NCBI GenBank assembly: GCA_036253495.1
Contig: GCA_036253495.1_4125.1
Direction: 5' to 3' (one strand)
DNA: 64,000 bases
From: a phage
Under the pieces are notes generated by a model that was not told the origin of the DNA, made no database searches, and saw only the letters and a program-made list of their open reading frames with translations. Below are positions 1 to 57,666 of the stretch, piece by piece (the first letter of the stretch is position 1; each line of letters begins with the position of its first letter). The position numbers were made by a program, and so were the translations under genes.

Positions 1-48
1 TATGTCGTAAAGATCATTAATGCGACACAACGTAGACAAGAATACAAG

Positions 49-390
49 ATGGAAATTCTACGCGGAGATAGTGAAATTCGTCTATATAATGTATCACGCT
101 ACACTAAGATACTGGTAAAACATTCTTATGAAGATGACGAGAAGTTAGCTGTAGCTAAAATTGATTCAAACACTTTCAAAGAACAAATGTTCATGGCTGC
201 TATGTCATATGATCAATTAACTTATAATAAGCTAGAAATGGGTTATAAATTACTTAGGTTATTAGAAGATCATTATGAAATTACAATTATGGACAAATTG
301 CTTACCAAAAGCCAAGAGGAACTAGAGAAAATGCATTTGTTATTAAAAAAATATATTGATGATAATTTAAATTATGGAGAAGTACGTTGA
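49..390 (+). CDS. hypothetical protein (113 aa from first ATG; frame is open to the window start, so the true start may lie upstream)
   Basis: ORF track; stop overlaps TTG start of next gene; no recognisable motif. Confidence 0.55.
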
Positions 391-1799
391 AAAGTAATTT
401 AGAAAATATACGCAAAAAAGCCGATAATTTAGTACTATGTTGTATAGGGGCTTTATTCGCTGTTACTTTAGTTTCCGGTGTTGTTCATGGTAGTTTTATT
501 ATTGCACTAATCGGTGCAGTTTTATTATTAGTAATGCTAACTCCTTTACTATTTGTTGAAAGTAATGCGTTCACTCGAACGTTGTTAAGTATAAATGTGA
601 TGTGCTGGAGTGCGTTACTAATACATCTTGGCTTAGGGATGGTGGAATGGCACTTTACAGTTTTTGTCTTTTTAAGTTTATTGATTGTATGGCGTGACTG
701 GCGTTGTGTATTAGCAGGTTCAGTACTGATTGCTATACATCATTTATTATTTGGATTGTTACAGGGTGCTGGAATTCCAATATTATTCGTGTTTTCTTTT
801 CACCATATTTCGTTATGGCACATTATAGAGCACGCAATATATGTAGTAGTACAGGCAATAGTTCTGATGTACGTAGCGTACATTATGGAGAAAGATGCAA
901 ATGAAGCAGATGAAATTCAACGAATTGCAAGATCAGTGAATTCTGAAGACGGCAATATTACTTTAGAAATACAAAATAATCATTTCAACTCCGAATTTGC
1001 ACAGACTTTTAGTAAAACAATATCAGCTATGCGTGAGGCAATTGAACAAGTACAAATTACAGTTCAGTCAATGAAAAGCAACTCCTATCATCTCGAAAGT
1101 AAAAGTAATGATTTAGCTTTCAGAACTGAAACACAAGGACAGGCACTTACTCAAATCGCTGCTGCTATGGAAGAATTAAGTGCTACATCTGCAAATACAT
1201 CTGATAACTCCAATACTGCAAAAAGTATGGTTAAAACTACAAAAGAATCCAGTACTAATGCAATTGAAAGTATCAATAATTGCAAAGAGCAGATGGATAG
1301 AATTAAAGAAGATTCTAATGCTATAGTTGCTATACTCAAAAATATAGAAACTATTGCTTTCCAGACTAATATTCTTTCTTTAAATGCCAGTATTGAAGCT
1401 GCTAAAGCTGGTGAACATGGACGTGGATTCTCTGTTGTTGCACAGGAAGTTCGTAACTTAGCAATGAAATGTGATGCATGTAGTAAAGAAATTAAAGAAA
1501 TCGTTGATAACTCCGTAAAAAACAACAACCAAGGAATAGAACAAATCAACGAAACTGCAAGTGATATTGATTCTATTGTAAAAAATGTTGATTCACTCTT
1601 GCAGTTCATTGATGATTTAGCTATAATGGCTGAACAACAAAGCATTGCAATCCTTCAGGTTACTGAGAGTGTTAATATGATGGACCGTTCAGTACAGCAA
1701 AATGCGGAGCATGTAAAGGACACAATGATGATGGTAGACAATCAACAGTCTGAAGTACATGCTTTACAAAAAGCCACTTCGATTTTTAACGTGAAATAA
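387..1799 (+). CDS. methyl-accepting chemotaxis protein-like membrane protein
   Basis: 470 aa; TTG start with GGAGA about 7 nt upstream; N-terminal ~150 aa strongly hydrophobic (several predicted TM helices); C-terminal region carries the MCP signalling-domain core [33 protein letters not shown]; intrinsic terminator immediately downstream. Confidence 0.85.
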
Positions 1800-1806
1800 T
1801 TTTAAA

Positions 1807-1832
1807 GCCAGGGTATTGACTCTGGCTTTTTT
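1807..1832 (+). terminator. rho-independent terminator
   Basis: GC hairpin gccagg..tctggc followed by TTTTTT. Confidence 0.7.
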
Positions 1833-1872
1833 CTTTGCTATTATTTTAATATTATTTAACCGAGGATATCAT

Positions 1873-2427
1873 ATGGACAATTACCTATTAATCTTACAAA
1901 TTTACAACGAACTGGGAAAACTTCTTGAAACGTGTAATTCACAGGGACGTAAATTAAGAATCGGTTTCGATTATGAAATTGAATACACAGGAGAGGGTAT
2001 TGCAACGCAGCAGATGTTCACAGAAGAAAATAAAACTATTCTGTGCGTTTACCCACATGAAGGTGATGAGGAAGACTGTGTTGTTGATTTTTCATATGAC
2101 AGTTCTTGGGCTTTTATTTCACGTAATCCTCGAATGAAAGAGGCAGTGGATTACAAAGAACCATCATATGATCCTATTGCGTTGTTCAGTACTGAGAATT
2201 TAGAAGAACAAAATTTCCAGAGTTCTGTAACTCACGATAAATTAATCACTGATGCACTTACGATTGAAGCTTTAGCACGTAACTATAAATTTGATTTCAA
2301 TCTCAATAATTATTATATGTCATATAGTGCAACAGCATCATTACTCACTGATGATCAATTAGTAGTATTACTCAAGGACTTGAAAAACTACGCACAAACG
2401 AGAAAAGAACATGAAAACACTAATTGA
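1873..2427 (+). CDS. hypothetical protein, FQ-motif paralog family
   Basis: Track ORF 1816..2427 trimmed to first ATG at 1873 (GAGGA RBS; upstream part overlaps the terminator); motif EEQNFQSS. Confidence 0.65.
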   Translation: MDNYLLILQIYNELGKLLETCNSQGRKLRIGFDYEIEYTGEGIATQQMFTEENKTILCVYPHEGDEEDCVVDFSYDSSWAFISRNPRMKEAVDYKEPSYDPIALFSTENLEEQNFQSSVTHDKLITDALTIEALARNYKFDFNLNNYYMSYSATASLLTDDQLVVLLKDLKNYAQTRKEHENTN

Positions 2428-2983
2428 TATTTTTAAAGTACTAGAAGAACTTACTCATAAGTTAGATGAACAAAAAAGAACTGAGAATATTTTTCATTAC
2501 TTCAACAATCCAATGTACCGATTAGTTTTTGATTGCAGTACTTTGTATCGTTATGCTAATATCCAAATACAACACTGCATTCAACATAAAACCAAAAATA
2601 TATGGTCAGTTGATGCTTCTTATGTGGCATCAGGCAGAGAGAGTAAATTTTTGGGTTCAGTTTCTGATTGTAGTCTTACTGTGAATAAACTCAAAGAAAC
2701 TAACGAATTAATCGTCAGAAATTTGTACGATGATTATTATGATGATGAAGAATATCTTCATATTGCACCTGAGCTACAAAATCCAGAAGAGCGAGAAGCA
2801 TATCTTTTCCAGTTGTCGTTGCTCCCAGGTTATGATATGATAGCTAAAGCTGATTTTGTATATCAACTATCAATGCAACTTGGTAGTGGGGAGTGTTCTG
2901 CTTTCAATAATCTATACAATGAAAGTACTGAAACACAAGAAGAATTATTGGAGGAATTAAATGCATTTCTCAAATCTTTATAA
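2411..2983 (+). CDS. hypothetical protein, FQ-motif paralog family
   Basis: ORF track; motif AYLFQLSL; short overlap with neighbours. Confidence 0.65.
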   Translation: MKTLIDIFKVLEELTHKLDEQKRTENIFHYFNNPMYRLVFDCSTLYRYANIQIQHCIQHKTKNIWSVDASYVASGRESKFLGSVSDCSLTVNKLKETNELIVRNLYDDYYDDEEYLHIAPELQNPEEREAYLFQLSLLPGYDMIAKADFVYQLSMQLGSGECSAFNNLYNESTETQEELLEELNAFLKSL

Positions 2984-3539
2984 TTACATGTCCGAAGAGT
3001 ATCAATATTACACTAAGATGGTTTTGAAAGTGAATGCTATTCTTAATAGTGATTTATGTAAAACTAAAAAGACATTTAATCTCCCATATATGCGTTTGGC
3101 GATTACTAAAGACCAGGAAGGTATGTATGATCATGCAGTAGTTTCGATGAATGATCTACGTGTCTTTCTGATAATTAAGTACAATAAAGAAGATTTAACC
3201 AACAACGATGGGTACATTAACTACGATTATATTATTGGAGGAAATGCTGAAGTTCCAGGGACAAGTGAATTTGCAGGGATTGTTATTTCAGGTAAAAAAA
3301 TTCCAAAGATTAATCTTAACAGTAGTACTATAGAAGAAGAACTATTCCAGTTAAGTACTATGTACAGTACTAACGAATTGGATTTATTACTTTTCAGTAC
3401 AATCGTCAATCATGAACTGGATAAGAAAGACAAATACTGTCCATTGCAACAAATTGTTCATCGTTTCAAACGTAGTGAATTTAAAAGAATTCATGAAGGT
3501 CTGGACAGTCTTATTAACAATACTGGGGATTTCTCATGA
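2961..3539 (+). CDS. hypothetical protein, FQ-motif paralog family
   Basis: ORF track; motif EEELFQLST. Confidence 0.65.
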   Translation: MHFSNLYNYMSEEYQYYTKMVLKVNAILNSDLCKTKKTFNLPYMRLAITKDQEGMYDHAVVSMNDLRVFLIIKYNKEDLTNNDGYINYDYIIGGNAEVPGTSEFAGIVISGKKIPKINLNSSTIEEELFQLSTMYSTNELDLLLFSTIVNHELDKKDKYCPLQQIVHRFKRSEFKRIHEGLDSLINNTGDFS

Positions 3540-4096
3540 AATATAGTCTTTACTATAGAGGGAAGTTCCTTGAGAAGTTTATTGAAGATTGTGTAGCTGC
3601 ACTGAGTTTAATTCGTGAAGGTGAATACATTAAAGTCAATCACACTGTACTAAGAGATCTTAATTTTTTTCTGAGTGGTGATTTGAATAATGATATGCAC
3701 TTCACAATAACGTACAACCACAAAGATATCATTGAAATCAATACACAACAACGACACATAAAAGAATACACCCGATTACGCAATACCAAGACAAAGCGTG
3801 TAGTAATTAAAAAAGGTGATGTAGAGTTGATGTGTAAAGATAGTACTGCAATAGATATCAGTACTTACTTCGATAATGAAGAAGATATGGATTGTGATTG
3901 CTTCCAGAAGAGTTTAATTATTGATGATCCGTATGTACTGTACGGTGCAGTACTGGCTCCGTTCTGTCAGAAGAACTTACCAGATGGATGTACGGTTGAA
4001 TTGAACTTGACAGAACTCATGAATGATGATATATTTGAGTACATGAGTACTAACTCCAAGGCAATGATTGAACATATTAAGGCAATCCAATGTTAA
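3536..4096 (+). CDS. hypothetical protein, FQ-motif paralog family
   Basis: ORF track; ATGA overlap; motif DCDCFQKSL. Confidence 0.65.
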   Translation: MKYSLYYRGKFLEKFIEDCVAALSLIREGEYIKVNHTVLRDLNFFLSGDLNNDMHFTITYNHKDIIEINTQQRHIKEYTRLRNTKTKRVVIKKGDVELMCKDSTAIDISTYFDNEEDMDCDCFQKSLIIDDPYVLYGAVLAPFCQKNLPDGCTVELNLTELMNDDIFEYMSTNSKAMIEHIKAIQC

Positions 4097-4575
4097 ATCC
4101 AGCAGACGTTATTAAATTTTGTAAAATTCTTGAGAAGTATTCTCATAAATTTGTGCACGAAGTACAGATAATGATTGATGGCATTCCCTTTAACTTCGTG
4201 AAAAACAACGACATTATCGCTGTGTTCTGTGGCTCATGGACATTTTGTGAACTCAACTGTCAAGAATCTCAAAATGTTATTGTGAAACGAAACATGATCC
4301 TATCAAGGGAAAGTTCAGTATTCATTGAACCAAGTGGTGAAATCATATACGAGAAAAAGAACGGCGACAGAACTTTAGATGATTTTATGGCTGAATTGAG
4401 CCTTGATAATGAGTTTCATAGAAATGCAGTACTGATACATAGTGCTATGGTGCATGAAACTAATTTAAATTCTATATCAATTAATTTCGGTGTTTATTCT
4501 TATTACAAATTTACATTTGATATGATATTTCAAACACTTAACAAACATCCTATATTCTGGAAATGCAATGAATAA
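4090..4575 (+). CDS. hypothetical protein
   Basis: ORF track; tight packing. Confidence 0.6.
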   Translation: MLNPADVIKFCKILEKYSHKFVHEVQIMIDGIPFNFVKNNDIIAVFCGSWTFCELNCQESQNVIVKRNMILSRESSVFIEPSGEIIYEKKNGDRTLDDFMAELSLDNEFHRNAVLIHSAMVHETNLNSISINFGVYSYYKFTFDMIFQTLNKHPIFWKCNE

Positions 4576-5026
4576 AGACGATTACGAATTACTGAAAAAG
4601 TTAATCCAGTACTGCCTCAATGAACTGGATAATGGTAAAGCTCGAAAATCAGGTTCATGGTTTGATGTAAGCTATCCATCAGACGGCGATGATATGATGA
4701 CATTATGGTCAAATGAAAGATACATTGATTATAGTGTAATGGATAATACTACTATAGATTATGTCAATGACAATGTATGGTATTTCAATACACAGTTAAT
4801 CATTGATATTAAAAGTATAGATTTAAGTACTGAGATTGATGAAGCAACCATATTTCAATTAAGTACTTTGTATTCTGATGAAGTGATATATCCGTTATTA
4901 CTTCTCCTACAGTTGCGAGCCATTGCAGCAGAACGTGGTTTCACATCCATATCATTTGCTCATGACATTGATGTACGAAGAGCTGAAATTACAAAATTAG
5001 TTGAGGGATATGATGGAACACTTTAG
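4568..5026 (+). CDS. hypothetical protein, FQ-motif paralog family
   Basis: ORF track; motif DEATIFQLST. Confidence 0.65.
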   Translation: MNKDDYELLKKLIQYCLNELDNGKARKSGSWFDVSYPSDGDDMMTLWSNERYIDYSVMDNTTIDYVNDNVWYFNTQLIIDIKSIDLSTEIDEATIFQLSTLYSDEVIYPLLLLLQLRAIAAERGFTSISFAHDIDVRRAEITKLVEGYDGTL

Positions 5027-5504
5027 TACTAAAGACTTTGTGGAATTGCATAAAATTCTTGAAGAAAAATATATCAATGAACAATATGGTCGATTCGAAC
5101 TGGCTCCAGATATTATTCTTAAAATACAAAAAGATGGTATGATCCGAGTTGTATTTGAGCAGAAAAGAGGTTTAGACCATGACATTTTCATGCTCTTTGA
5201 TAGCAATAGTCCTATCTATGATGCACCAAGTTTCGATACAAGCACCATTGGTTCACAATCCGCAGTCTTTCATCCAGGAACTACTGTTGTAAAAATCGAT
5301 GGTGTAGATTGCAACATGCGACCTGTATCATTGGATGAAATTGATGAAGTTGAATTTCAGAACAGTACTGTGAATAATTATAGTGCAATGTTCACCTACA
5401 TGTGCTATCTTAACAGTACTTGTTGCAAATTTCTTATGTACACATCGTATGTAAATGAAGATGAAGTACTACACTATGTATTGAAAAAACTAAGAGAATT
5501 ATGA
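5001..5504 (+). CDS. hypothetical protein, FQ-motif paralog family
   Basis: ORF track; motif EVEFQNST. Confidence 0.65.
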   Translation: MRDMMEHFSTKDFVELHKILEEKYINEQYGRFELAPDIILKIQKDGMIRVVFEQKRGLDHDIFMLFDSNSPIYDAPSFDTSTIGSQSAVFHPGTTVVKIDGVDCNMRPVSLDEIDEVEFQNSTVNNYSAMFTYMCYLNSTCCKFLMYTSYVNEDEVLHYVLKKLREL

Positions 5505-5505
5505 T

Positions 5506-6108
5506 ATGATCATTGACATGCCTATTCTTAATAAAATGCTTAACCCTGTCATTACGTTAGCTAAAAGTATTTCTAATAATGAAAAGTTGCATCTCCCATA
5601 CTCTATGTTAACGTATGCAACTGATTTTTACAGGATTGAAATCTCGGCATGTGAACAACGAATTACACTAGCATTCAAACGCCTTGGTGCTGGACTTGCA
5701 AATGATTTTGATATTTCACTGATACTTCATGGTGAATTAGAAGATAGTAAAATTCTGTCCTATGAAAGAATTCTTCGCAGTACAAATGAAATAAAATTAT
5801 TCAAAACATTTTCACATTATAATGGTTCTGATGTTTCATATTATTTTGATAAGGATTCATTTAAGAATATCAAAAGTGTTGAAGTGAAAGATTTCAGCGA
5901 AGAATGGTATTTTCAAAATACATTAATTCATTCTTTACCTTCATATGAAGAAATGAAGATGAACATTGATCTTTATGAAAAATTAAAATCAGAACTGAAA
6001 TGTAATTTTCTATTATCAATGAACTACAAAAAGATCAGTACTGATGTGGTATTGGAAGATGAACTAATGAAACGAATTTGGTCTGCTATACCAGTTATTA
6101 AGGAATAA
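5506..6108 (+). CDS. hypothetical protein, FQ-motif paralog family
   Basis: ORF track; motif EEWYFQNTL. Confidence 0.65.
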   Translation: MIIDMPILNKMLNPVITLAKSISNNEKLHLPYSMLTYATDFYRIEISACEQRITLAFKRLGAGLANDFDISLILHGELEDSKILSYERILRSTNEIKLFKTFSHYNGSDVSYYFDKDSFKNIKSVEVKDFSEEWYFQNTLIHSLPSYEEMKMNIDLYEKLKSELKCNFLLSMNYKKISTDVVLEDELMKRIWSAIPVIKE

Positions 6109-6110
6109 TA

Positions 6111-6650
6111 ATGCACATTGCAACATTATCAAATACTAAAGAATTTGAGCTATGGCCTGAGAAAGTTAACAGCTTAAGACAGCGTTATGTGAATTTCTGC
6201 CGTGGTATCAGGAAAGCCAGTAGAATGTCACATTCACTAAGCATGTCAATTGATGGTTGTGTTATGAATGCAGATAAGAACCGTTTGTACGTTGAATCAT
6301 ACAGTTCGCAAGCTCTGTACATTATGCTTCATGCTGGTACACAAATCCCACAGAATTCGATTGGTTGTTATTCAATTACATGGTCTGGACGAAAGTCTAC
6401 TAAATTATATCCGTGCAAAAGAAACGACCAATCGTTCAGTGTTGATATTAATTACTGTGAGTACACTGAAGAAGAACACTTTCAGCACAGTACTCTTCAT
6501 GATATCATTGAGTACAATGAATGCATCAATGTACTGGATAAATGTTATGATTTAGAACATAATACTGGTATCGTTGTAGTTAATAATTGCTTTTTTGATA
6601 GTGATGTACTTGATACATTAGATTATTTTTTAGAGGGTTACAATGACTAA
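6111..6650 (+). CDS. hypothetical protein, FQ-motif paralog family
   Basis: ORF track; motif EEEHFQHST. Confidence 0.65.
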   Translation: MHIATLSNTKEFELWPEKVNSLRQRYVNFCRGIRKASRMSHSLSMSIDGCVMNADKNRLYVESYSSQALYIMLHAGTQIPQNSIGCYSITWSGRKSTKLYPCKRNDQSFSVDINYCEYTEEEHFQHSTLHDIIEYNECINVLDKCYDLEHNTGIVVVNNCFFDSDVLDTLDYFLEGYND

Positions 6651-7260
6651 CATTAGAACAGAGTATGTTAAGTACGAGAAAGCACTACGTGATTTACTAA
6701 ACATTGCACCGGATTTAATTAGAGCTAAACAAACACTATTTGACAAGTACGGTCCGAAAAGTGAACTCAAGCTATCAAAAAAGGGAAAACCCACACAATA
6801 TACAACGCTGTATAATAGATATAGCGTTGGGATTTGTAATATCTATACAGATGAATTAGTACTGGAATTAACCCAAGACGATGATGAAGAAGCACATGAT
6901 TTATTTCCTGAATTTGAAGAGTGCATGTTTAGTCCAGGTAATCCAGTGTTTTTAACCTTAAATGATGGAAGAAAAACGCTAAAAGAATCGTTCATCACAT
7001 ATGATGCCAAAACTAAAACACTAATGGATATTGAATCTGGGTATAAGACTGATCTGAAATCACTTGAAGATTGTAAGGGTGCATTGTTTCAGATGGGTGT
7101 AATCACAGAGGTTACCACTACACCAGAAGAATTATGGCTTATGGTTTCAGTACTGAATGATTGGTACAAAGTGAAGAGTCTACGAAATATGTTCATTTAT
7201 ATCAAGCCTGATTGCATCAAGAAAGAAACACTAATTAACAATATGGTAATACCTGAATGA
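6643..7260 (+). CDS. hypothetical protein, FQ-motif paralog family
   Basis: ORF track; motif GALFQMGV. Confidence 0.65.
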   Translation: MTNIRTEYVKYEKALRDLLNIAPDLIRAKQTLFDKYGPKSELKLSKKGKPTQYTTLYNRYSVGICNIYTDELVLELTQDDDEEAHDLFPEFEECMFSPGNPVFLTLNDGRKTLKESFITYDAKTKTLMDIESGYKTDLKSLEDCKGALFQMGVITEVTTTPEELWLMVSVLNDWYKVKSLRNMFIYIKPDCIKKETLINNMVIPE

Positions 7261-7856
7261 AAAAAGATCCAAATGAAGACTTAATCAATTCTTTAAGTAC
7301 TATCAAAGATTTGTGGTTACGATATCGTGGATTGTATAGTGTTAAAGATACAGAAAATAACATACTCCAAAGTCTTAAAATCACGATTCGAATGCAATTC
7401 AAAAATGGAATGGCAGTTGATGTTGAGATGAACAAAACTGGAGTTTATGTATATGATGGTTCTCGAACTGCAATCTTTATGGCAGAATTCATAGATGAAG
7501 ACTGTAATCTATATTGTTCATACGACATTGAAAGTGGTGATATCGAAATGTTCGCTAATGAACCTATCCTGCTCCGTTTCACTAAATCATGGAATGAAGA
7601 TTACATTATATATCAAAATGGAGGCTTCTTAAATTCCGATGAGGAACCCATCGATAACATAGAAGAAATGGCATTCCAGAGTAGTACTGTTAATGATGAT
7701 GCATTATCTTATCAAGAAATCCTTGACACAGTGAATGGTTATGATAAGATACAGGCTGCAATGAAAGAGAACGGTATCTGTTACCTTACAGTACTGGACA
7801 AACTCTTCTACGATGAACTGTGTTCGTACCTGAACTGTATTCTCACTGAGGATTGA
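7257..7856 (+). CDS. hypothetical protein, FQ-motif paralog family
   Basis: ORF track; motif IEEMAFQSST. Confidence 0.65.
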   Translation: MKKDPNEDLINSLSTIKDLWLRYRGLYSVKDTENNILQSLKITIRMQFKNGMAVDVEMNKTGVYVYDGSRTAIFMAEFIDEDCNLYCSYDIESGDIEMFANEPILLRFTKSWNEDYIIYQNGGFLNSDEEPIDNIEEMAFQSSTVNDDALSYQEILDTVNGYDKIQAAMKENGICYLTVLDKLFYDELCSYLNCILTED

Positions 7857-22439: not shown

Positions 22440-22703
22440 ATGAATATCCAAGATAGATTGCAATTGTTGCACACACTTGAAGAAGCTGCTTTTGAACTTG
22501 TTAATAAAATTGCACAAGAACTCCCAAAAGGAACCAACATTCGTGTTCGTGAAATGGATTATTTAACGGGAGAAATTGAAGAAAAAGTTCTAACAGTGAT
22601 CAAAGTAACATACTATGAATCAGAGTTATCAATTCAATGTAAGTCAGATAATGGTTACGTTTCCTACTATGGCACAGATGTAGATATAGAGGTAATTAGA
22701 TGA
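22440..22703 (+). CDS. hypothetical small protein
   Basis: Track ORF 22395..22703 trimmed to ATG just after upstream stop. Confidence 0.55.
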   Translation: MNIQDRLQLLHTLEEAAFELVNKIAQELPKGTNIRVREMDYLTGEIEEKVLTVIKVTYYESELSIQCKSDNGYVSYYGTDVDIEVIR

Positions 22704-23845
22704 GTAATTTACGAGAAATATACAATGATTTAATGGAACTATGTGAATCTAATGATGCATTTTTCTATATAGATCACACAAGCCCTGGTGGTGGTTTATA
22801 CCGTGTATTCACCTATCGTCTGGCATCTTATACCGATTTCACAAATAAAAATGCACTAGAAACTCGTGGTTCTATGTGGGAAATTGATTCCAACGGAATT
22901 ATGATTCGTTGTGCAGCACGTACAATGAAAAAGTTCTTCAATGCATATGAAAACCCGTACACAATGTTCAGTACTGATACTACCTGTGATGATATTGCGG
23001 TTGTAATGCCTAAGCTAGATGGATCTATCATCAGCACATTCCGTGATAATGATGGTGAAATCCGTTGCAAATCACACACTTCGTTATCTTCTGACCATGC
23101 TATTAACAGTACTCGACTTTTGAACGAGAACCAAAATCTCTATCAATACATTGATGAAGCAGACCGTTTGGGCTATACTGTGAATCTGGAATACACAAGC
23201 CCAGAGTATCGAATTGTGTTACCATATCAGGTGGAACAGTTATTTGTTCTTAACGTTCGTCATCGTATTAGTGGTGAGTTGTTATGCGGTAAAGCACTAC
23301 GTGATAAGTTTCCATGCCTTTCACAGTACAGTACTAATATGACAGGTAATGACATTCATCATACATTCCCGATTATGCCTACATTTAAAGAGTCAATCGA
23401 TAAAGTACGTTCTATGATTGACATTGAAGGTTTTGTGTGTATAATGAAAGATGGTACAATGTGCAAAATCAAAACTGACTGGTATTGCTCTTTGCATTTA
23501 ACAAAAGATTCCATTCTTATTGATTCCCATTTATATGAAGCTGTACTGACTGGTGCAAGTGATGACTTAAAACAATTGTTCAGTACTGATACATATGCTA
23601 TGGATAAGATATTAAGAATGGAACAATTGGTATTTTCGTGCTATAATGCTTTACAAGATGAGGTAGAAAGCTTCGTCCATGCATACAAGCACTTAGAGCG
23701 AAAGGAATTCGCACAAAAGGTTCAGCAAGATTTACCGAATGTATTGAACCGACAAGGCTTGGCCTTTGCGTTGTACAATGGCAAAAGTGTCGATTATAAA
23801 GAGACTTTACTAAAGTACTACAAAGATGTACTAAAGGATTTTTAG
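22700..23845 (+). CDS. rnlA: RNA ligase 1 (T4 RnlA-like)
   Basis: 381 aa; nucleotidyltransferase motif I KxDG (VMPKLDGSI); N-terminal and C-terminal blocks (EIYNDLMELCE, IMKDGTMCKIKTDWY, GASDDLKQLF) colinear with T4 RNA ligase 1 as recalled. Confidence 0.85.
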   Translation: MSNLREIYNDLMELCESNDAFFYIDHTSPGGGLYRVFTYRLASYTDFTNKNALETRGSMWEIDSNGIMIRCAARTMKKFFNAYENPYTMFSTDTTCDDIAVVMPKLDGSIISTFRDNDGEIRCKSHTSLSSDHAINSTRLLNENQNLYQYIDEADRLGYTVNLEYTSPEYRIVLPYQVEQLFVLNVRHRISGELLCGKALRDKFPCLSQYSTNMTGNDIHHTFPIMPTFKESIDKVRSMIDIEGFVCIMKDGTMCKIKTDWYCSLHLTKDSILIDSHLYEAVLTGASDDLKQLFSTDTYAMDKILRMEQLVFSCYNALQDEVESFVHAYKHLERKEFAQKVQQDLPNVLNRQGLAFALYNGKSVDYKETLLKYYKDVLKDF

Positions 23846-23874
23846 TACTAACTAGCCCAGCACAAGGAGAAGTG

Positions 23875-24129
23875 ATGGCTAAACCTAAGTATAAAAATGA
23901 TGGTTCCCTTTCTCCTACTGAGTTCAGGAAAATACAACAAGAAATCGATGATTTACAGCACAAACGCTCAATGAAAGGTGTGAAGATTAGTAAGAAGCGA
24001 ATCGAGAATACTTTTGGGTGTAGTAGTACTGAATATAAGAAGAAAAGGAAACCAAAGGATGTTAAGCCGAGAATACATGATGTAACTCGCTATACATCAA
24101 AACGTGAAAATAAATTCGATCCACTATAA
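23875..24129 (+). CDS. small basic protein, hypothetical
   Basis: Track ORF trimmed to ATG with AAGGAGAAG RBS; Lys/Arg-rich. Confidence 0.6.
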   Translation: MAKPKYKNDGSLSPTEFRKIQQEIDDLQHKRSMKGVKISKKRIENTFGCSSTEYKKKRKPKDVKPRIHDVTRYTSKRENKFDPL

Positions 24130-24138
24130 GGAGTTCAT

Positions 24139-24375
24139 ATGAAAGTTGAAGTTCAGCATAGTATTGTTCAGGATATGTCAGTGGTTAAGTTTCTTTCTCT
24201 GAAAGATTACTTCAGATGTATCAAGTTCCTTGAAGAATCTCAATTACAGTGGACCCCCTTAAAGTACAGTTCATCCAATGACACTGCTAGTATTCGTTGT
24301 GATGAAGCTGTACTTGTAAAAATCTCCAAGCGATTTGGAGTTGGGAAATACAATGAAAAACAATCATTCAAGTGA
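24139..24375 (+). CDS. hypothetical protein
   Basis: ORF track. Confidence 0.6.
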   Translation: MKVEVQHSIVQDMSVVKFLSLKDYFRCIKFLEESQLQWTPLKYSSSNDTASIRCDEAVLVKISKRFGVGKYNEKQSFK

Positions 24376-24607
24376 TTTGTTATATTATAAAGTACTATCA
24401 GAATGTTTGACAGATGTATTGTACCGTGAGAGTAATACTCTACGTGCAAAATATATTAACAAAAGAGTACGTTATAAATCATCTTATGATGGGATGAATG
24501 TTTATGGTAAAATCACTAATGTATATGTAGATGATGATTTTACATTGAATATCACTGTCGATAATTGTATTGGTATCTCAATTGATGATATTATTGAGGT
24601 AATCTAA
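24353..24607 (+). CDS. small protein, IG-motif paralog family
   Basis: Track ORF 24335..24607 trimmed to internal ATG; LRAKYINKRVRY. Confidence 0.55.
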   Translation: MKNNHSSDLLYYKVLSECLTDVLYRESNTLRAKYINKRVRYKSSYDGMNVYGKITNVYVDDDFTLNITVDNCIGISIDDIIEVI

Positions 24608-24918
24608 TGAATAAAGCATTAAAAGAACTTCATAATTTAATGAATGCAGAAATTGAATTAACTAATACTATTTCTGAAATTGTTCATGATATGATTACAC
24701 AATACAAGAAATCACTCATTGGTAAGAAAGTTGAATGCTGGGATTACAACACTAAAACATGGTTCGAAACTATCATTAGTGATGTTAATGTTAAATTTCA
24801 TGTAGTTACTCATCACATTTCTGACGAGTGCTATGTAGAAGTAACTATAGGACACAACACGCGACATGAACGTTTTTCGTGGTACAATCTAAAGAATGTG
24901 AAATTTATTGAGGATTAA
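24607..24918 (+). CDS. small protein, IG-motif paralog family
   Basis: 103 aa; KKSLIGKKVEC. Confidence 0.6.
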   Translation: MNKALKELHNLMNAEIELTNTISEIVHDMITQYKKSLIGKKVECWDYNTKTWFETIISDVNVKFHVVTHHISDECYVEVTIGHNTRHERFSWYNLKNVKFIED

Positions 24919-25851
24919 ATGCCAACTATTACACTAACAGTTGGATTGCCAGGATGTGGTAAAACCACGTGGGCAGTGCAAGAAATTAAAAAAGCAAAGT
25001 CCAAGACTATCAACATCAACCGTGATGATATTCGAGAGTCTATGGCTGGGTCACATGATGCTTATAAATTCACTGATGCGAACGAGAAGTACGTAACTAA
25101 TCAACAGTTCAGTGCAGCAAACGCCGCAGCAGCGAATGGATGGAACATTATTGTGTCCGATACGAACCTGAAACAAGGTTTTCGTGATGAATGGAAACGT
25201 TGGGCTAAAGATAATGGCTACGACTACAAAGAAAAGAACTTCTACGAAGATTTTGTACCGAATGAAGACCGTGGTGCAGATGTTCATGAATTCTTTAAGA
25301 TTAAGGAATTCGTGAAGCTCTGTAAGAAACGCAACCTTCTTCGTGAGCGTTCAGTACAAGATGAAATCATTGACACTATGGCAGATACGTACTATTATAG
25401 TAAGGCGATGCACATTGGTTACTATGGTAATGCACGTGAAGCTGCTATCATTGTTGATATCGACGGTACTCTTGCTCATAAGTGGGGACGTAACCCGTTT
25501 GATGAAAGTACTGTCCTTCAGGATACACCAGATGAAGAAGTAATTCTGTCTGTCATTGCTGAGGCTGTTTTCCATAAGCGTAAGGTAATCGTCATGAGTG
25601 GGCGTACTGAAGGGTGTCGTGCTGATACTGAACAGTGGCTTAAGAATTGGGGCATTCCCTACGATGTATTGTTAATGCGAGCTATCGATGATAAACGTCC
25701 TGATGATGTTGTCAAATTCGAGTTGTATATGAATAACGTTGTTAATCATTACGATGTTAAGAAAGTATTTGATGACAGGGCCGCCGTTGTATTCATGTGG
25801 CGTAAGCTACTAGGCTTGAAAGTATTTCAGGTGGAACCTGGACTATTTTGA
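24919..25851 (+). CDS. pseT: polynucleotide 5-prime kinase / 3-prime phosphatase (T4 Pnk-like)
   Basis: 310 aa; N-terminal P-loop GLPGCGKTT; C-terminal HAD phosphatase motif IVDIDGTLA; colinear with T4 Pnk as recalled. Confidence 0.85.
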   Translation: MPTITLTVGLPGCGKTTWAVQEIKKAKSKTININRDDIRESMAGSHDAYKFTDANEKYVTNQQFSAANAAAANGWNIIVSDTNLKQGFRDEWKRWAKDNGYDYKEKNFYEDFVPNEDRGADVHEFFKIKEFVKLCKKRNLLRERSVQDEIIDTMADTYYYSKAMHIGYYGNAREAAIIVDIDGTLAHKWGRNPFDESTVLQDTPDEEVILSVIAEAVFHKRKVIVMSGRTEGCRADTEQWLKNWGIPYDVLLMRAIDDKRPDDVVKFELYMNNVVNHYDVKKVFDDRAAVVFMWRKLLGLKVFQVEPGLF

Positions 25852-41336: not shown

Positions 41337-43763
41337 TTAAGCACTGATTGTTACAGTTGCAGTATCAGTTTTATTGCCATTCGCAGTAGTCACTGTAATG
41401 ACTACAGTACCTTCTTCTAGAGCAGTTACTAATCCATCATCACTAATAGATACTTTAGTAGGTTCATCTGCACTATAAGTTACTGATTTGTTAGTTGCGT
41501 TAGCTGGAAGAACTTCTGGAACTAGTTGAACTGTTTTAGTACCTGATAGTGAAAGATCAGTGGCTTTAGGTGTTAAACCAACGCTGGATACTGGTACTGG
41601 AATATTAACAGTTACAGCACATTTTGCAGTTTTTGCACCATCAGTAGTTTTTACAGTGATATCAGCAGTACCGTTTGCAACAGCAGTGATTAAACCACTT
41701 GCACTAACAGTTGCGACCCCAGCAGCAGAAGTACTATAAGTTACTGCTTTGTTAGTTGCATTAGCTGGTAGTACAGTTGGTGTTAGTTGTTGAGTTGCAC
41801 CAACAGATGTTAAAGTTGCTGTTGTTGGAGAAACAGAAACACTAGCTACAGGAACTGGGATTGACACAGTAATGACACCTTGACCTGTTTTACCACTTCC
41901 ATCAGCGGCAGTTGCGATAATGTTTGCAGTACCGTTAGTTAACGCAGTTACAACACCAGTACTAGCATCAACTTTCGCTACAGCAGGTGCACTAGAAGAC
42001 CATGTTACAGCTTTATTAGTTGCGTTAGCTGGAAGAACTTCAGCAGCCATTGCTTGAGTTGCGTTAACAGCAGTCAATGTTTTAGTTGCTGGTGTAACAT
42101 TAATAGTTGTTACTGGAACTGGAATTGCTACAGTTACTGCACAAACCGCAGTTTTTGCACCATCAGCGGTTGTTACGGTGATGTTAGCAGTGCCATTTGC
42201 TACAGCAGTTATCAATCCTGAAGTGCTAACAGTTGCTACACCCGCATTAGAAGTACTATAAGTTACTGCTTTATTGGTTGCATTAGTTGGTGCAACCGAT
42301 GGTGTTAGTTGTTGTGTTGCACCAACAGATCTTAAAGTTGCTGTTGTTGGAGAAACAGAAACACCAGTTACTGGTACTGGAATATTAACAGTTACAGCAC
42401 AAACTTTACTAAAGCCACCATCAGCAGTAGTAGCCGTGATATTAGCAGTGCCATTCGCTACCGCAGTGATTAAACCACTTGTACTAACGGTTGCAACACC
42501 AGCAGCAGAAGTTGCGTATGTTACTGCTTTGTTACGAGCATTAGCTGGTAGAACAGTTGCAGTTAATTGCTGTGTTGCACCAACAGAAGTTAATGAAGCG
42601 GTTGCAGGTGTTAGGTTAATACCAGTTACTGGGATCGTCACATCAATAATTGATTGTGCGGTTTTTTCACCATCAATAGTTGTTACGGTAATAGTGGCAG
42701 TACCATTATTAACAGAAGTTACTAAACCGTCATCATCAACTTCTGCTACTGTAGGTGCAGAAGATTCATAACGAACTTCCTGATTTGATGCAGTTCTTGG
42801 TAGTACCGTTGCTGTTAATGGTTCATTTGCACCAATAGTAGTGAATGTATATGTTTCAGGTGTTAACGTAACACCAGTTACTGCTGTTTGAACTTTAATA
42901 GAAGAAGTATCAGTAAATGAACCATCTTCAGATGTTGCAGTAATAGTAACATCACCATTGGATACACCTGTTACCAACCCAGAATCTTTATCAACTGTTG
43001 CAACGGATGGAGCAGATGAAGTCCATATAACTTTCTTGTCTGTTGCTGAGGCCGGAGTAACTTCAGCTAACAATTGTTGAGTTGACCCAACGTTTACAGT
43101 TGCAGATTTAGGAGAAACGGTAACACCAGTAACACCAGTACTGACAACGATAGAACACACATCTGTGAAATCACCATCGTGAGTTGTTACGGTTACATCA
43201 GCATTGCCATTTGCAAGTGCAGTTGCTAGACCTGTTTGAGCATCAACTTCAACGATTGTAGGAGCAGATGAAGAGTAGGTTACTGCCTTGTCTTTTGCAT
43301 TAGATGGAACTACTTGGGCTGATAGTTGTTTTGTTGCACCAACTTTAAGAGATGCATCTTTGGGTGTAATTACAACACCAGTTACGGGGATATCAGCATT
43401 AACATAATCGCGTTTTACGATACGACCATTATTTAATTTAATAACACGACCCATATAAAGCATAGTATACCCCATGCTAATACCATCATCAACATAGATC
43501 ATGAATGAATTGTCTTGAACCATATTAATTGCGTCTGCTGGTTCAACAGAATTTGGAATGTCGATACCACGAGTATCATACCAACGCATGGAAACTTTGT
43601 AATAGATATCACCATTATCATTGATGAGATCATACACGTTACCGGAACGTTGACGGTTAATATATAAAGTTTCCGTTAACACCTTACCATCGATTTTAGC
43701 GACAGAAACTTTAATACCACCAATACCAAAAGGCAATTTACCTTCACTAGATATTGCTTTCAT
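41337..43763 (-). CDS. virion-associated Ig-like (Big_2-type) repeat protein, Hoc-like decoration/adhesin candidate
   Basis: 808 aa; N-terminal ~130 aa domain shared with flanking ORFs, then about seven tandem ~90 aa repeats with VTGV..P.......G.TQQL...V.P.NATNK.VT..SS....ATV...GL.TAV.NGTA.IT pattern; late promoter upstream. Confidence 0.75.
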   Translation of the reverse strand: MKAISSEGKLPFGIGGIKVSVAKIDGKVLTETLYINRQRSGNVYDLINDNGDIYYKVSMRWYDTRGIDIPNSVEPADAINMVQDNSFMIYVDDGISMGYTMLYMGRVIKLNNGRIVKRDYVNADIPVTGVVITPKDASLKVGATKQLSAQVVPSNAKDKAVTYSSSAPTIVEVDAQTGLATALANGNADVTVTTHDGDFTDVCSIVVSTGVTGVTVSPKSATVNVGSTQQLLAEVTPASATDKKVIWTSSAPSVATVDKDSGLVTGVSNGDVTITATSEDGSFTDTSSIKVQTAVTGVTLTPETYTFTTIGANEPLTATVLPRTASNQEVRYESSAPTVAEVDDDGLVTSVNNGTATITVTTIDGEKTAQSIIDVTIPVTGINLTPATASLTSVGATQQLTATVLPANARNKAVTYATSAAGVATVSTSGLITAVANGTANITATTADGGFSKVCAVTVNIPVPVTGVSVSPTTATLRSVGATQQLTPSVAPTNATNKAVTYSTSNAGVATVSTSGLITAVANGTANITVTTADGAKTAVCAVTVAIPVPVTTINVTPATKTLTAVNATQAMAAEVLPANATNKAVTWSSSAPAVAKVDASTGVVTALTNGTANIIATAADGSGKTGQGVITVSIPVPVASVSVSPTTATLTSVGATQQLTPTVLPANATNKAVTYSTSAAGVATVSASGLITAVANGTADITVKTTDGAKTAKCAVTVNIPVPVSSVGLTPKATDLSLSGTKTVQLVPEVLPANATNKSVTYSADEPTKVSISDDGLVTALEEGTVVITVTTANGNKTDTATVTISA
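41500..43300 (-). repeat. in-frame tandem coding repeats (Ig-like domain array)
   Basis: Near-identical DNA segments recur at about 270 nt spacing; these also create the spurious antisense ORF 42274..42771. Confidence 0.6.
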
Positions 43764-46252: not shown

Positions 46253-46465
46253 ATGATAACTATCAATTACTTTTCACTATGCTTTGTTTATTTTGTTGTT
46301 GTATTTCTAGCAGTTGTAGCGTACAATAATATTAAATGTATATATAAAATTATCAAAAACAAAGAGAAATTCAATGGATGGATGATATATCACATTGTCA
46401 TCTCGGTTGTGTGTATCTTATTTGTATACGATTTGAGTTCATTAGGTACAGTAGGTAAGCTATGA
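46253..46465 (+). CDS. small membrane protein
   Basis: 70 aa, two hydrophobic helices. Confidence 0.55.
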   Translation: MITINYFSLCFVYFVVVFLAVVAYNNIKCIYKIIKNKEKFNGWMIYHIVISVVCILFVYDLSSLGTVGKL

Positions 46466-47214
46466 TTTCTGACTCTTTTATAAAAAATAAAGGTAATAAA
46501 CGTGTATTGGTTATTTCCGGTGCAGGTCTATCCGTTGAAAGTGGGATGGAACCGTTTCGCATGGACGATGGCCTATGGGATCAATTTCAAATAAATGATG
46601 TATGTAACATTGCACGTCTTAGTACTAAGTATCATTTAGTACACACTTTCTATAATACATTACGTGTTAAAATGAAAGATTGTGTTCCTAATGATATGCA
46701 TTATTATATCAAATCTATAGAAGATACATACGGTGATAACTTTTTACATATGACTTCGAATATGGATGATCTCTATACTCGTATTGGTGGCAATGAATTA
46801 AAGTTACATGGTAATTTAAAAGAAGTTATTGAGAATTTTACAATTGGTGGTGACGATTATAGTATTGTGGATTGTGGTTATGAACCGTACATTCCGAAAG
46901 AAGGTGTCTTTGCGAAACCAAACGTAGTGTTCATTGGTGAATATTATCGTTATGTTGATGGTGAAAAACTCCCAATATACGATGAGCGTAATTTAGTATT
47001 GCAATCCTTAACAGAAGATGATACAGTTGTAGTCATTGGTAGCAGTGACACAGTACTGAAATGGTCACATCTGGTTGCGTGTTTACCATGCTTTAGTGTT
47101 AATATCAACATCAGAAAAAATGATAACGATTTCATGTTCAATGAAAAAATTATAAAACCAGCTACAAAAGCGATTCCAGTACTGGAAACTATCATTAAGG
47201 ATAGAATGAAATGA
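46462..47214 (+). CDS. Sir2-family NAD-dependent protein (deacylase/ADP-ribosyltransferase/NADase family)
   Basis: 250 aa; Rossmann motif ISGAGLSVESGMEPFR and catalytic-region LHGN; ATGA overlaps at both ends. Confidence 0.75.
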   Translation: MISDSFIKNKGNKRVLVISGAGLSVESGMEPFRMDDGLWDQFQINDVCNIARLSTKYHLVHTFYNTLRVKMKDCVPNDMHYYIKSIEDTYGDNFLHMTSNMDDLYTRIGGNELKLHGNLKEVIENFTIGGDDYSIVDCGYEPYIPKEGVFAKPNVVFIGEYYRYVDGEKLPIYDERNLVLQSLTEDDTVVVIGSSDTVLKWSHLVACLPCFSVNINIRKNDNDFMFNEKIIKPATKAIPVLETIIKDRMK

Positions 47215-55554: not shown

Positions 55555-56496
55555 ATGCAAATAGATAAATTATATACGGACGTAACTAACTTCCTCAACC
55601 AGAGTAACGCTGATTTAACAAATGAAAATGCAAATAAAGACGCTAAATGTGTTAATACACATCGTGATTTATTGGCAGGTATTCTTTCTAAACATTATTC
55701 CCAAGATGTGATTCCTGATGAATTGATGAAGTGGCATAATGAAGGTTACGGTCATATTCATGATTTAGACTATTACATTAGCCCATTAACAAACTGTTGT
55801 TTAGTTAATTATCCTGATATGCTTGCTAATGGCTTCATGATTGGTTGTGCCAAGATTGAAGAACCAAAAAGCTTTGGGGTAGCTTGTACAGTACTAACAC
55901 AGATTGTTCAGGCTGTGGCAAGTTCACAGTACGGTGGTCAGTCGTTGGCTCACATTGACACTGGCCTTGCACCATATGTACAAAAGTCATGGGATAAACT
56001 TCTAGAAAAACAAAAGAAATACAATCTTAGTACTGAATTCATCGAAGATGAGTTGCGTAAGGAAGTTTATGACGGTTGTCAAACAATTCTATATCAAACA
56101 AACTCAATGATCAGTACTAATGGTCAGGCTGCGTTCATTTCTTTGAGTTTAGGATTAGGTACATCTAAATTTGAAAAACTAATCACTGAACAATATTTGA
56201 AAGTACATGAAAATGGACTAGGTAAAGATAAGATTACTCCAGTATTTCCTAAAGTAATATTCTTTCTTCAGGATGGAATTAATATGAATACCAATGATAC
56301 TAACTATGATCTTAAACAGTTAGCTATGCGTTGTGCATCAAAAAGAATCTATCCAGACTTTGTTTCTGTACCATTGAACCATAAAGTAACTGGAAGTACC
56401 AGTACTGCTGTTACTCCTATGGGATGCAGAAGCTTCTTAGGTAAATGGGAAGATGAAAATGGCAACGAACAGTACAATGGCCGTTTCAATTTGGGT
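55555..56496 (+). CDS. nrdD: anaerobic ribonucleoside-triphosphate reductase NrdD, exon 1
   Basis: N-terminal 314 codons of a class III RNR; the frame runs into the interruption and stops at 56523; proposed 5-prime splice site after ...GRFNLG (exon ends in U). Confidence 0.75.
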
Positions 56497-57666
56497 AGAC
56501 ATACATGCCCCATTGCTGAGTGATCAGTAATTGCAAACACGTTAACATGCTGGAACCCCCTAAAGCCATAAACACTACAACGCAATCTTAATAGATAAAC
56601 GTGAATGTTACGAGAGTAGAAAAAAGTTTTATGGATATATAATAAGTTGTAAATCATATTATATGTACAATGGGAAATCAGCAGCCAAGCCATCATTAAT
56701 ATAATGGTGGAAGGTTCAACGAGTATAATACGTGACTCTAATATTAAAACTTCCATAAATAATATTTTATGGAGGATATATAATGAGAAAAGGAAGTATA
56801 TATAAAATAGAATGTATAGTAACTAATAAAGTTTATATTGGACAAACCGTTTTATATCCACCGATGAAAAGATGGGTGGAACACTGCCAAAACAATGATG
56901 AAAAATCATGTATTAGTAAAGCTATTAAAAAATTTGGTTTTGAAAATTTCACATTTCAAATTTTAAAAACTAATATTGATTTAAATAATCTTAATGATGA
57001 AGAAATAAAATATATTGAAATTTATGATAGTTATAAGAATGGTTACAACTCAACATTAGGTGGTCACCAAACCTTTAATGGAAGTAAAATAACTGAACTT
57101 GATGCTATAAAAATTATAGAATATATTAAATCATATAAAGATCTTTCATTCGTAGAAATAGCAAAAACTTTAAATGTTCCATACGGCTGTGTAAGTGATA
57201 TAAATTGTGGCGAAACTTGGTATCAAATAAATGAAACATACCCTATTAGAGATAACAAAAGAAATAAGATTGAAGATAATATAGATTCAATTTATGAGTT
57301 ATTGAGAAATGGTGTTTCTAGTATAGAAATTGCAAAAATATATAATGTTTCAAATGTCACCATTTGTAACGTTAATAATGGAACAATCTATCGAAACGAA
57401 TCAGTTGAATACCCAATTTTTAAACCACAAAATTCATCAAAACGACATTCTATTGAAATAGTTTCTAAGATTATTGATATGTTAATTAATACAGATAAAA
57501 ATTATTCTGAAATTGCAAAATGTTTAAATGTAGGAAGAAAAACTGTTGCAAATATCAATAACGGTTCTGGATATAAAGAACTATCAAATGAACTTGGTTA
57601 TATATCATTTCCTCTTCGTTAGAGTATGGTGTACTCTAATCCTTCATGAAAGTGAAGGTACAAATG
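56497..57666 (+). mobile_element. probable group I intron interrupting nrdD, carrying a GIY-YIG homing endonuclease ORF
   Basis: 1.17 kb separating two halves of nrdD; exon 1 ends in T, the interruption ends in G (candidate omega-G); GCCCC a few nt inside the 5-prime end can pair with exon GGGU (P1 with U-G wobble); ~285 nt structured segment precedes the ORF, as in the T4 nrdD intron. Confidence 0.6.
56783..57622 (+). CDS. GIY-YIG homing endonuclease (I-TevII-like)
   Basis: 279 aa; N-terminal GIY-YIG module (GSIYKIECIVTNKVYIGQT); repeated helix-turn-helix-like segments downstream; lies within the nrdD interruption. Confidence 0.8.
   Translation: MRKGSIYKIECIVTNKVYIGQTVLYPPMKRWVEHCQNNDEKSCISKAIKKFGFENFTFQILKTNIDLNNLNDEEIKYIEIYDSYKNGYNSTLGGHQTFNGSKITELDAIKIIEYIKSYKDLSFVEIAKTLNVPYGCVSDINCGETWYQINETYPIRDNKRNKIEDNIDSIYELLRNGVSSIEIAKIYNVSNVTICNVNNGTIYRNESVEYPIFKPQNSSKRHSIEIVSKIIDMLINTDKNYSEIAKCLNVGRKTVANINNGSGYKELSNELGYISFPLR

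Follow-up and report, generated by a model that had tools for sequence, protein, structure and literature searches.

The window analysed here is a 64,000-nucleotide (nt) stretch of phage contig GCA_036253495.1_4125.1 (assembly GCA_036253495.1), and near its beginning, at positions 387–1799, it carries a gene for a complete methyl-accepting chemotaxis protein (MCP, or chemoreceptor). That this MCP is phage-encoded, as a first-pass annotation made from the sequence had proposed, was borne out by the 98.8–99.2% identity of the window to the jumbo Escherichia phage A4 (ON286972.1; 355.5 kb; host E. coli LF82), in which the equivalent gene, A4_379, already has the GenBank annotation 'methyl-accepting chemotaxis protein'. 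The MCP identity was thus on record, as was the presence of MCPs in a few other large phages. We found no earlier description of the six-helix, His-cluster sensor family to which the membrane domain of this protein belongs, of a possible fold kinship between that domain and cyclase membrane domains, or of the loss of hinge and adaptation sites that is specific to the phage copy. The features of the locus are as follows (aa, amino acids; TM, transmembrane helix).

1–390, plus strand: 3' part of the upstream gene, equal to A4_378, a 182-aa ORFan whose start lies upstream, outside the window.
376–379, plus strand: Shine-Dalgarno sequence GGAG, 7 nt 5' of the TTG start, read directly from the sequence.
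387–1799, plus strand: complete MCP gene of 470 aa, TTG start and TAA stop, equal to A4_379.
387–896, plus strand: N-terminal six-helix membrane sensor, aa 1–170, predicted N-in/C-in.
897–1052, plus strand: divergent HAMP-like linker, aa ~171–222, with AS1 continuous with TM6, a G189-x-I-x-L connector, and AS2 from about aa 203.
1053–1796, plus strand: kinase-control module, aa 223–470, a long antiparallel hairpin that turns at aa 341, placed by alignment to Tsr and by the AlphaFold2 (AF2) model.
1158–1187, plus strand: sole canonical methylation motif, A-A-A-M-E262-E263-L-S-A-T, corresponding to Tsr Q311 (= E263).
1353–1463, plus strand: hairpin tip, aa 323–359, the CheA/CheW and trimer-contact region, 30 of its 37 residues identical to Tsr 371–407.
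1804–1836, plus strand: intrinsic terminator closing the two-gene unit, an 11-bp stem with a 4-nt loop (1804–1829) and a T-run.
1816–1844, plus strand: sigma-70-like promoter of the next gene, TTGACT-17-TATTAT with TG, a consensus match only, overlapping the terminator.

The C-terminal half of the protein is an MCP signalling module. The profile search that had been named as the decisive check recovered Pfam MCPsignal (PF00015) at aa 281–434 with 127.3 bits (cut-off 34.6; E = 7.1e-37), and the signalling core motif quoted in the first-pass annotation lies at aa 330–359. By phmmer, aa 174–469 align to E. coli Tsr 219–517 (6S1K), with three residues missing in the HAMP AS1/connector region and no gap between aa ~197–469 and Tsr 245–517. 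The NCBIfam models of Tar, Tap and Tsr are collinear with the phage protein, the Tar model aligning aa 150–468 to 195–514. Because the alignment to Tsr 245–517 is gapless, the phage kinase-control module is of the same length class as those of the host receptors (Tsr/Tar/Trg/Tap/Aer type); Tsr/Tar-type receptors reportedly make up the 36-heptad class in the 2007 scheme of Alexander and Zhulin. The match in length matters because receptors sort by length into arrays of their own (PMC6628036). The CheA/CheW and trimer-contact tip is the best-conserved part of the phage MCP: its differences, in Tsr numbering, are A379S, A383S, V384I, R388K, Q392H, A397S and G401Q, and F373, I377, L380, N381, E385, F396, V398 and E402 are kept. 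The full-length AF2 model (30-sequence alignment; pLDDT 86) comprises the TM6 helix (143–184), a connector (185–202) and the hairpin (203–340 and 342–464).

The N-terminal domain had been described as a multi-helix hydrophobic region of ~150 aa in place of a canonical periplasmic sensor, and both its polytopic nature and the lack of a periplasmic sensor held, although it extends over ~170 aa. Hydropathy and AF2 agree on six helices, at 4–33, 37–56, 61–81, 86–102, 105–127 and 143–184 (N-domain pLDDT 92, pTM 0.86), and both termini are predicted to lie inside because of the basic N-terminus and the R-D-W-R loop. The signature residues of the domain are D13, E87, H89, F90, F93, the Y/W-R-D-W loop (102–105), H118, H119, F122, Q126, H149 and V153, and its motifs, i.e., E-x-H-F in TM4, the Y/W-R-D-W loop, H-H-x-x-F-x-x-x-Q in TM5 and H-A-x-x-V-V in TM6, are all present in the phage. 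Across 100 aligned members, G84, H89, F90, F93, H119, H149 and V153 are invariant, and D13, E87, Y102, R103, W105, H118, F122 and Q126 are at least 90% conserved. The polar residues of TM4 (E87, H89), TM5 (H118, H119, Q126) and TM6 (H149) all fall in the outer-leaflet half of the membrane when counted from the helix ends.

The six-helix domain matched nothing in Pfam at E ≤ 1 (MHYT, MASE1-4, 5TMR-LYT and 7TMR-DISM included) and nothing in NCBIfam; its profile found nothing at E ≤ 10 among PDB sequences, and BFVD held no viral protein with the same fold. A profile built from 20 N-domains, run in an exhaustive search of representatives, retrieved 6086 clusters (50% identity level) at E ≤ 1e-3 and 567 at E ≤ 1e-30; a word-indexed search with the N-domain gave 10 fragments and was uninformative. 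The domain is joined to MCP modules via linkers that are plain or of the HAMP or HAMP_2 type; in Granulicella tundricola it stands ahead of a GGDEF-EAL output, and a 315-aa protein from a P. aeruginosa plasmid has it without any Pfam domain. The E-x-HF, HH and H columns are invariant across these MCP, GGDEF-EAL and plasmid members. Being joined to different output domains, as is the hallmark of sensor modules, it is a real module, and it represents a widespread and unnamed sensor family.

What the signal might be could not be read from the gene neighbourhoods of the bacterial homologues, which contain exbBD and metC in Enterobacter and tctC in Cupriavidus. Because the His and Glu residues sit in the outer-leaflet halves of TM4–6, the likeliest role of the cluster is that of a putative metal or cofactor site reporting redox state, O2, a metal ion or pH, with a bound lipid as the alternative; as candidates we would place a metal/cofactor site for redox or O2 before direct sensing of a metal ion or pH, and lipid last. 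An adjacent HH together with a single His on neighbouring helices recalls the copper and haem sites of membrane oxidases, a resemblance that we do not count as evidence. An O2- or energy-type input is likewise attractive in view of the HH motif, the analogy to HtrVIII and the HemAT- and Aer-like MCPs of other phages, none of which is evidence either.

Two groups of known proteins have a comparable layout. HtrVIII (Htr8) of Halobacterium salinarum is presented in a review passage as an aerotaxis transducer with six N-terminal TM segments and proposed haem binding (Brooun et al. 1998, as described in PMC13401364), and by that description it shares with the phage MCP six TM helices followed directly by an MCP module and a presumed membrane His sensing site; no other MCP with a six-TM layout is known to have been studied by experiment. 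Class III adenylyl cyclases (AC9, AC5 and M. tuberculosis Cya/Rv1625c) and the P. aeruginosa diguanylate cyclase ImcA also have dimeric six-helix bundles upstream of a coiled-coil transducer. In Cya, the dimer interface is made by TM4–6, which also provide an extracellular pocket where cations bind and activity is controlled, and the TM domain has been argued to be a receptor (PMC9433096); in ImcA the 6TM domain is required for activity (PMC10904736). In contrast to the phage/MCP family, to which the His/Glu signature is specific, these domains have another output domain, and sequence identity is only ~10%. Because the cyclase/ImcA match was not recovered by Foldseek, the predicted fold kinship is moderately supported.

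Whole-length homologues of the phage MCP (37–40% identity, 99% coverage) are found in Enterobacter, Pseudocitrobacter, Pantoea and Siccibacter, and more distant ones in Cupriavidus and Paraburkholderia (both ~31%) and in Aquabacterium; a scan of genome contigs, in which such hits are otherwise swamped by the generic MCP motif DGIAFQTN, showed full-length relatives to be common in Burkholderiales. Among 5.8 billion proteins there was no homologue between 40% and 99% identity, and in a neighbour-joining tree the phage MCP is the long-branch sister of the Enterobacterales clade. The bacterial six-helix MCPs (e.g., of Enterobacter soli, Pseudocitrobacter corydidari, Pantoea, Siccibacter, Cupriavidus and Paraburkholderia) have the same end-to-end architecture and all of the sensor signature residues, whereas the phage copy stands apart by its long branch and AT-rich codons (GC content at third codon positions, 25%). 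The N-domain, linker and signalling parts are each 33–41% identical to the Enterobacterales homologues, which argues that the gene was captured whole, and its fully ameliorated composition argues that this happened long ago. Most likely, an ancestor of the A4/JNE01-like phages captured a whole proteobacterial MCP, most likely an Enterobacterales-like one. What the first-pass annotation had called a fusion of an MCP signalling domain to a membrane domain is therefore an ordinary bacterial MCP subfamily, and a fusion made in the phage was rejected, since bacteria have the same architecture and the phage lineage took it over in one piece.

The composition of the gene is that of its surroundings (GC 34.4%, against 34.5% for the window), and a foreign composition was rejected. 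A lower AGTACT density, taken earlier as a hint of a different evolutionary origin, was not found, since with its 3 sites the gene falls within the 3.9 ± 2.0 that the window has per 1413 bp. Over the whole window (1–64000) AGTACT is in large excess, with 177 sites against 21.6 expected from base composition (8.2-fold), and CAGTAC (134 against 10.7 expected) and GTACTG (118 against 12.0 expected) are the most over-represented hexamers, which suggests a longer and very frequent motif around CAGTACTG.

Relative to the A4 allele, the gene has 25 nucleotide differences, 22 synonymous and 3 non-synonymous, with a ratio of non-synonymous to synonymous polymorphism (pN/pS) of 0.036. The phage protein keeps 27 of 33 conserved sensor columns, including every His/Glu signature residue, and 32 of 36 signalling columns, and the six sensor-column changes are conservative (G to S, A to S twice, L to I, Y to W and V to I). 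Within the phage lineage, purifying selection acts strongly on the MCP gene, and the few non-synonymous changes together with the conserved columns argue for a working protein that includes a working sensor. Divergence from A4 is 1.8% in the gene, nearly all of it synonymous, compared with 0.3% in window positions 1–386 and 0.9% in 1800–4000. The exact protein is present on contigs of ~352–359 kb in several 'E. coli' assemblies, and nine close variants lie on contigs of ~350 kb, all with an intact reading frame; the phage gene was found in none of the complete RefSeq E. coli genomes. In 5,426 complete E. coli genomes the N-domain DNA of the Enterobacter homologue had no blastn match (sensitivity limit ~65–70% identity), and E. 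coli itself seems to be without this receptor type. A4 and vB_EcoM_JNE01 form a clade separate from the PBECO4/121Q-type Asteriusviruses (PMC13070987; PMC10868205), and none of the other Asteriusviruses had a nucleotide match to window positions 1–7849 or, by tblastn, an MCP.

The gene begins with a TTG (387–389) that overlaps the TGA (388–390) of the upstream open reading frame (ORF) as TTGA at 387–390, and it has a terminator of its own (hairpin 1804–1829 plus T-run), both as noted at first reading. A later start is implausible because the homologue alignments begin at the conserved N-terminal I-R-x-x-A-D motif of the MCP. In A4 the order is terminator, TTGACA-17-TAGAAT promoter (extended −10 TG), ribosome-binding site, 182-aa ORFan, MCP and terminator. 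Judged by this layout, the A4_378 ORFan and the MCP are co-transcribed and translationally coupled, and the near-consensus promoter that heads the two-gene unit in A4 suggests early transcription by host sigma-70 polymerase. The ORFan, which had no homologue in any other phage record and is confined to A4-like phages, may be a functional partner of the MCP. It could be argued that the MCP is a non-functional passenger, i.e., a captured bacterial gene without a role in the phage, given that the hypervariable ORFan region around it is missing from other Asteriusviruses and that several residues important in model receptors are changed. We consider this very improbable given a pN/pS of 0.036 with 22 synonymous differences, the reading frame maintained in the nine variants, the full amelioration, and the gene's own Shine-Dalgarno sequence, promoter context and terminator.

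The reading that we prefer, with moderate confidence, is that an early-expressed chemoreceptor joins the host array and changes how the infected cell swims, through a sensed signal or a largely fixed bias. Host RNA polymerase would transcribe the MCP early as the second gene of the two-gene unit, and the protein would insert in the inner membrane through its six TM helices, with N and C termini inside, and dimerise. Since its tip is Tsr-like and its cytoplasmic module equal in length to those of the host receptors, we infer that it would enter mixed trimers of dimers and, with them, the E. coli array of CheA and CheW; that MCPs of foreign origin are able to signal in this host is reported in a preprint (bioRxiv 10.1101/339275). 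The input would be the membrane-embedded six-helix bundle, with E87, H89, H118, H119, Q126 and H149 clustered in its outer-leaflet half, and the signal would travel via TM6 and the divergent HAMP-like linker. The output would probably be biased and poorly adapting, given the loss of the hinge, of most methylation sites and of any NWETF-type tether, and the net effect would be that the infected cell gains a sensory input absent from E. coli, or a fixed swimming bias. More tentatively, this virulent jumbo phage may give its host a new sensory modality (O2, redox, metal or pH) and so steer or bias the infected cell toward conditions favourable for phage production or spread; this stronger version we consider less likely than not.

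Several observations weigh against this reading, a series of altered control sites among them. The phage MCP shares with Tsr/Tar the gapless kinase-control module, the conserved tip, one E-E-x-x-A-T motif and a modelled helix-connector-helix linker in the HAMP position, and it differs from them in having six TM helices instead of two and no periplasmic four-helix-bundle sensor. All three hinge glycines are replaced, Tsr G340, G341 and G439 corresponding to A292, I293 and A391 in the phage, at positions where G occurs in 97%, 72% and 86%, respectively, of the closest homologues. The glycine hinge, typical of enteric receptors though no strict requirement of the MCP family, has been implicated in ON/OFF switching, and hinge replacements in Tsr impair or abolish chemotaxis (PMC6606802), so the phage MCP may not switch normally. 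At the Tsr R388 position the phage has K340, where 95–97% of homologues have R, and at the C-helix Glx site it has D, where 24 of 29 homologues have Q or E; among the six-helix MCPs, the loss of the hinge glycines, of this Arg and of this Glx site is seen in the phage copy alone. With the Tsr methylation sites numbered as in PMC6606802, a single clear methylation motif is left, and the sites equivalent to Q297 (T249) and E493 (D445) are lost, while E304 and E502 correspond to Q256 and Q454; the N-helix thus has one perfect motif (E262-E263-L-S-A-T) and one partial (T-Q256-I-A-A-A), and the C-helix D445 and Q454. The C-terminus (...ATSIFNVK) is without an NWETF-type pentapeptide, the tether for CheR/CheB. 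Two bacterial six-helix sensor MCPs (P0151 and P0154) end in DWETF, which the phage copy and its closest relatives do not have.

Pfam HAMP gave no match to the phage MCP at E ≤ 1, in keeping with the earlier statement that there is no canonical HAMP; yet aa ~171–222 align to the Tsr HAMP (in phmmer, aa 174–245 to Tsr 219–293, with low posterior in AS1 and high in AS2) and are modelled as helix-connector-helix, which favours a HAMP-like linker topology. The TTGACA-17-TAGAAT promoter, for its part, is a consensus match only and comes from phage A4, just upstream of the window. Because hinge replacements impair chemotaxis in Tsr (PMC6606802), the output of the phage MCP is likely shifted or stiffened, with weak adaptation.

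These departures could also mean that the MCP enters or titrates the CheA/CheW array independently of any signal, leaving a fixed run/tumble bias or disrupted chemotaxis. The phage-specific loss of the entire hinge and of a C-helix methylation site, the R-to-K change at the R388 position, the impaired chemotaxis of Tsr hinge replacements (PMC6606802) and the lack of an NWETF-type tether would all fit such an array poison, as would a tip that is otherwise 30/37 identical to Tsr. A decoy needs no sensor, however, yet all six-helix signature residues are retained, the six changes in the sensor columns are conservative, and non-synonymous changes are rare along the whole gene, the N-domain included; we regard this explanation as rather unlikely. 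The CheA/CheW decoy suggested in the first-pass annotation is, in its pure form, less likely than a sensor on the same grounds (27/33 sensor columns; pN/pS 0.036), although the loss of the hinge and of most methylation sites speaks in its favour.

The MCP scaffold might instead have been re-used, perhaps together with the ORFan, for phage-specific membrane signalling unrelated to flagella, e.g., the sensing of membrane energisation or of the envelope for lysis timing, or superinfection exclusion. Translational coupling to a 182-aa ORFan confined to A4-like phages, the location in a block of lineage-specific early genes, and the altered hinge and adaptation sites are consistent with this. The CheA/CheW and trimer tip is the best-conserved part, however, and this is difficult to account for unless the host supplies Che partners. 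The ORFs examined included no CheA- or CheW-like gene of the phage, and a search for defence systems (PADLOC) gave nothing of substance, only weak coiled-coil noise from DruC and JetC. We consider such re-use improbable, and a receptor that acts in the host array remains our preferred reading.

MCPs are rare in phages, as had been supposed: a search of 50,697 phage records left no more than a handful of genuine phages with an MCPsignal protein, and phage-borne MCPs form PHROG 8572. Vibrio phage vB_VmeM-Yong XC31 (L009:1187-3019) encodes a complete chemoreceptor of the dCache_1+HAMP+MCPsignal type and 'Microcystis phage MaAM05' (L010:1796-3322) a complete HemAT-like one (protoglobin+MCPsignal), both annotated 'hypothetical protein', and a P1 variant has an Aer-like gene inside a transposon. 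Like the MCP studied here, these are complete receptors in large phage genomes, and two of the three have O2/energy-type sensors (HemAT-like, Aer-like), but they represent different lineages and sensors and none is of the six-helix type. In the MaAM05 record, isolated from hospital wastewater, thiL and ispD adjoin the MCP gene, and the assignment deserves a check. 'Acinetobacter phage MD-2021a' was rejected as a carrier, being a bacterial contig with pilJ and chpA: CAKLQH020000002.1 (254 kb) holds mdtC, macA, phoB-annotated response-regulator genes, cheW, a tap-annotated MCP (which we read as pilJ-like), a very long cheA (read as chpA-like) and dapE, and looks like a bacterial chromosome contig misfiled as phage. 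In the literature searched we found no discussion of the A4-type MCP gene and no demonstrated function for any phage MCP; one preprint lists CheR, CheY and MCP in phages of ammonia oxidisers.

Window positions ~1–22000 form a long co-directional series with 29 ORFs of at least 120 aa. The small ORFs near the MCP gene were rejected as paralogues of one another, as there was no BLASTP match among the 29 at E < 1e-3, and the two genes flanking the MCP had no match in other phages and no second copy in A4. This part of the window looks like a lineage-specific hypervariable early region. The remainder encodes T4-like early and middle functions, i.e., RNA ligase, polynucleotide kinase, DNA ligase, PhoH, Sir2 and anaerobic ribonucleotide reductase. 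An RNA-repair set (22700–25851, plus strand) consists of a T4 Rnl1-like RNA ligase and a polynucleotide kinase-phosphatase, a Sir2-family protein is encoded at 46462–47214 (plus strand), and the sole large minus-strand ORF (41337–43763; 808 aa) has eight Big_2 Ig-like repeats. The nrdD gene is split (55555–58530) into an ORF at 55555–56523, matching Pfam NRDD 1–283, and one at 57646–58530, matching 280–562 plus the glycyl-radical domain, with a GIY-YIG homing-endonuclease-like ORF (56783–57622) between them, a layout reminiscent of T4, whose nrdD is interrupted by an intron.

If the receptor proves to work within the host array, we would have a concrete, genetically tractable example of a virus that reprograms the navigation of bacteria and not their metabolism, in the best-understood chemotaxis system, that of E. 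coli, for which Förster resonance energy transfer (FRET), crosslinking and tethered-cell assays exist. Even a gene that did no more than jam the array would add a new type to the takeover functions of phages. The large six-helix family, with its invariant His cluster, resembles the membrane domains of adenylyl cyclases, whose ligand-sensing role is debated, and what such a domain senses could be found out easily through chemotaxis read-outs in E. coli. Should the phage indeed provide its host with a new sensory modality, a by-product would be the definition of a widespread, as yet unnamed six-helix sensor domain (>6000 protein clusters) with a structural kinship to the orphan 'receptor' membrane domains of adenylyl cyclases.

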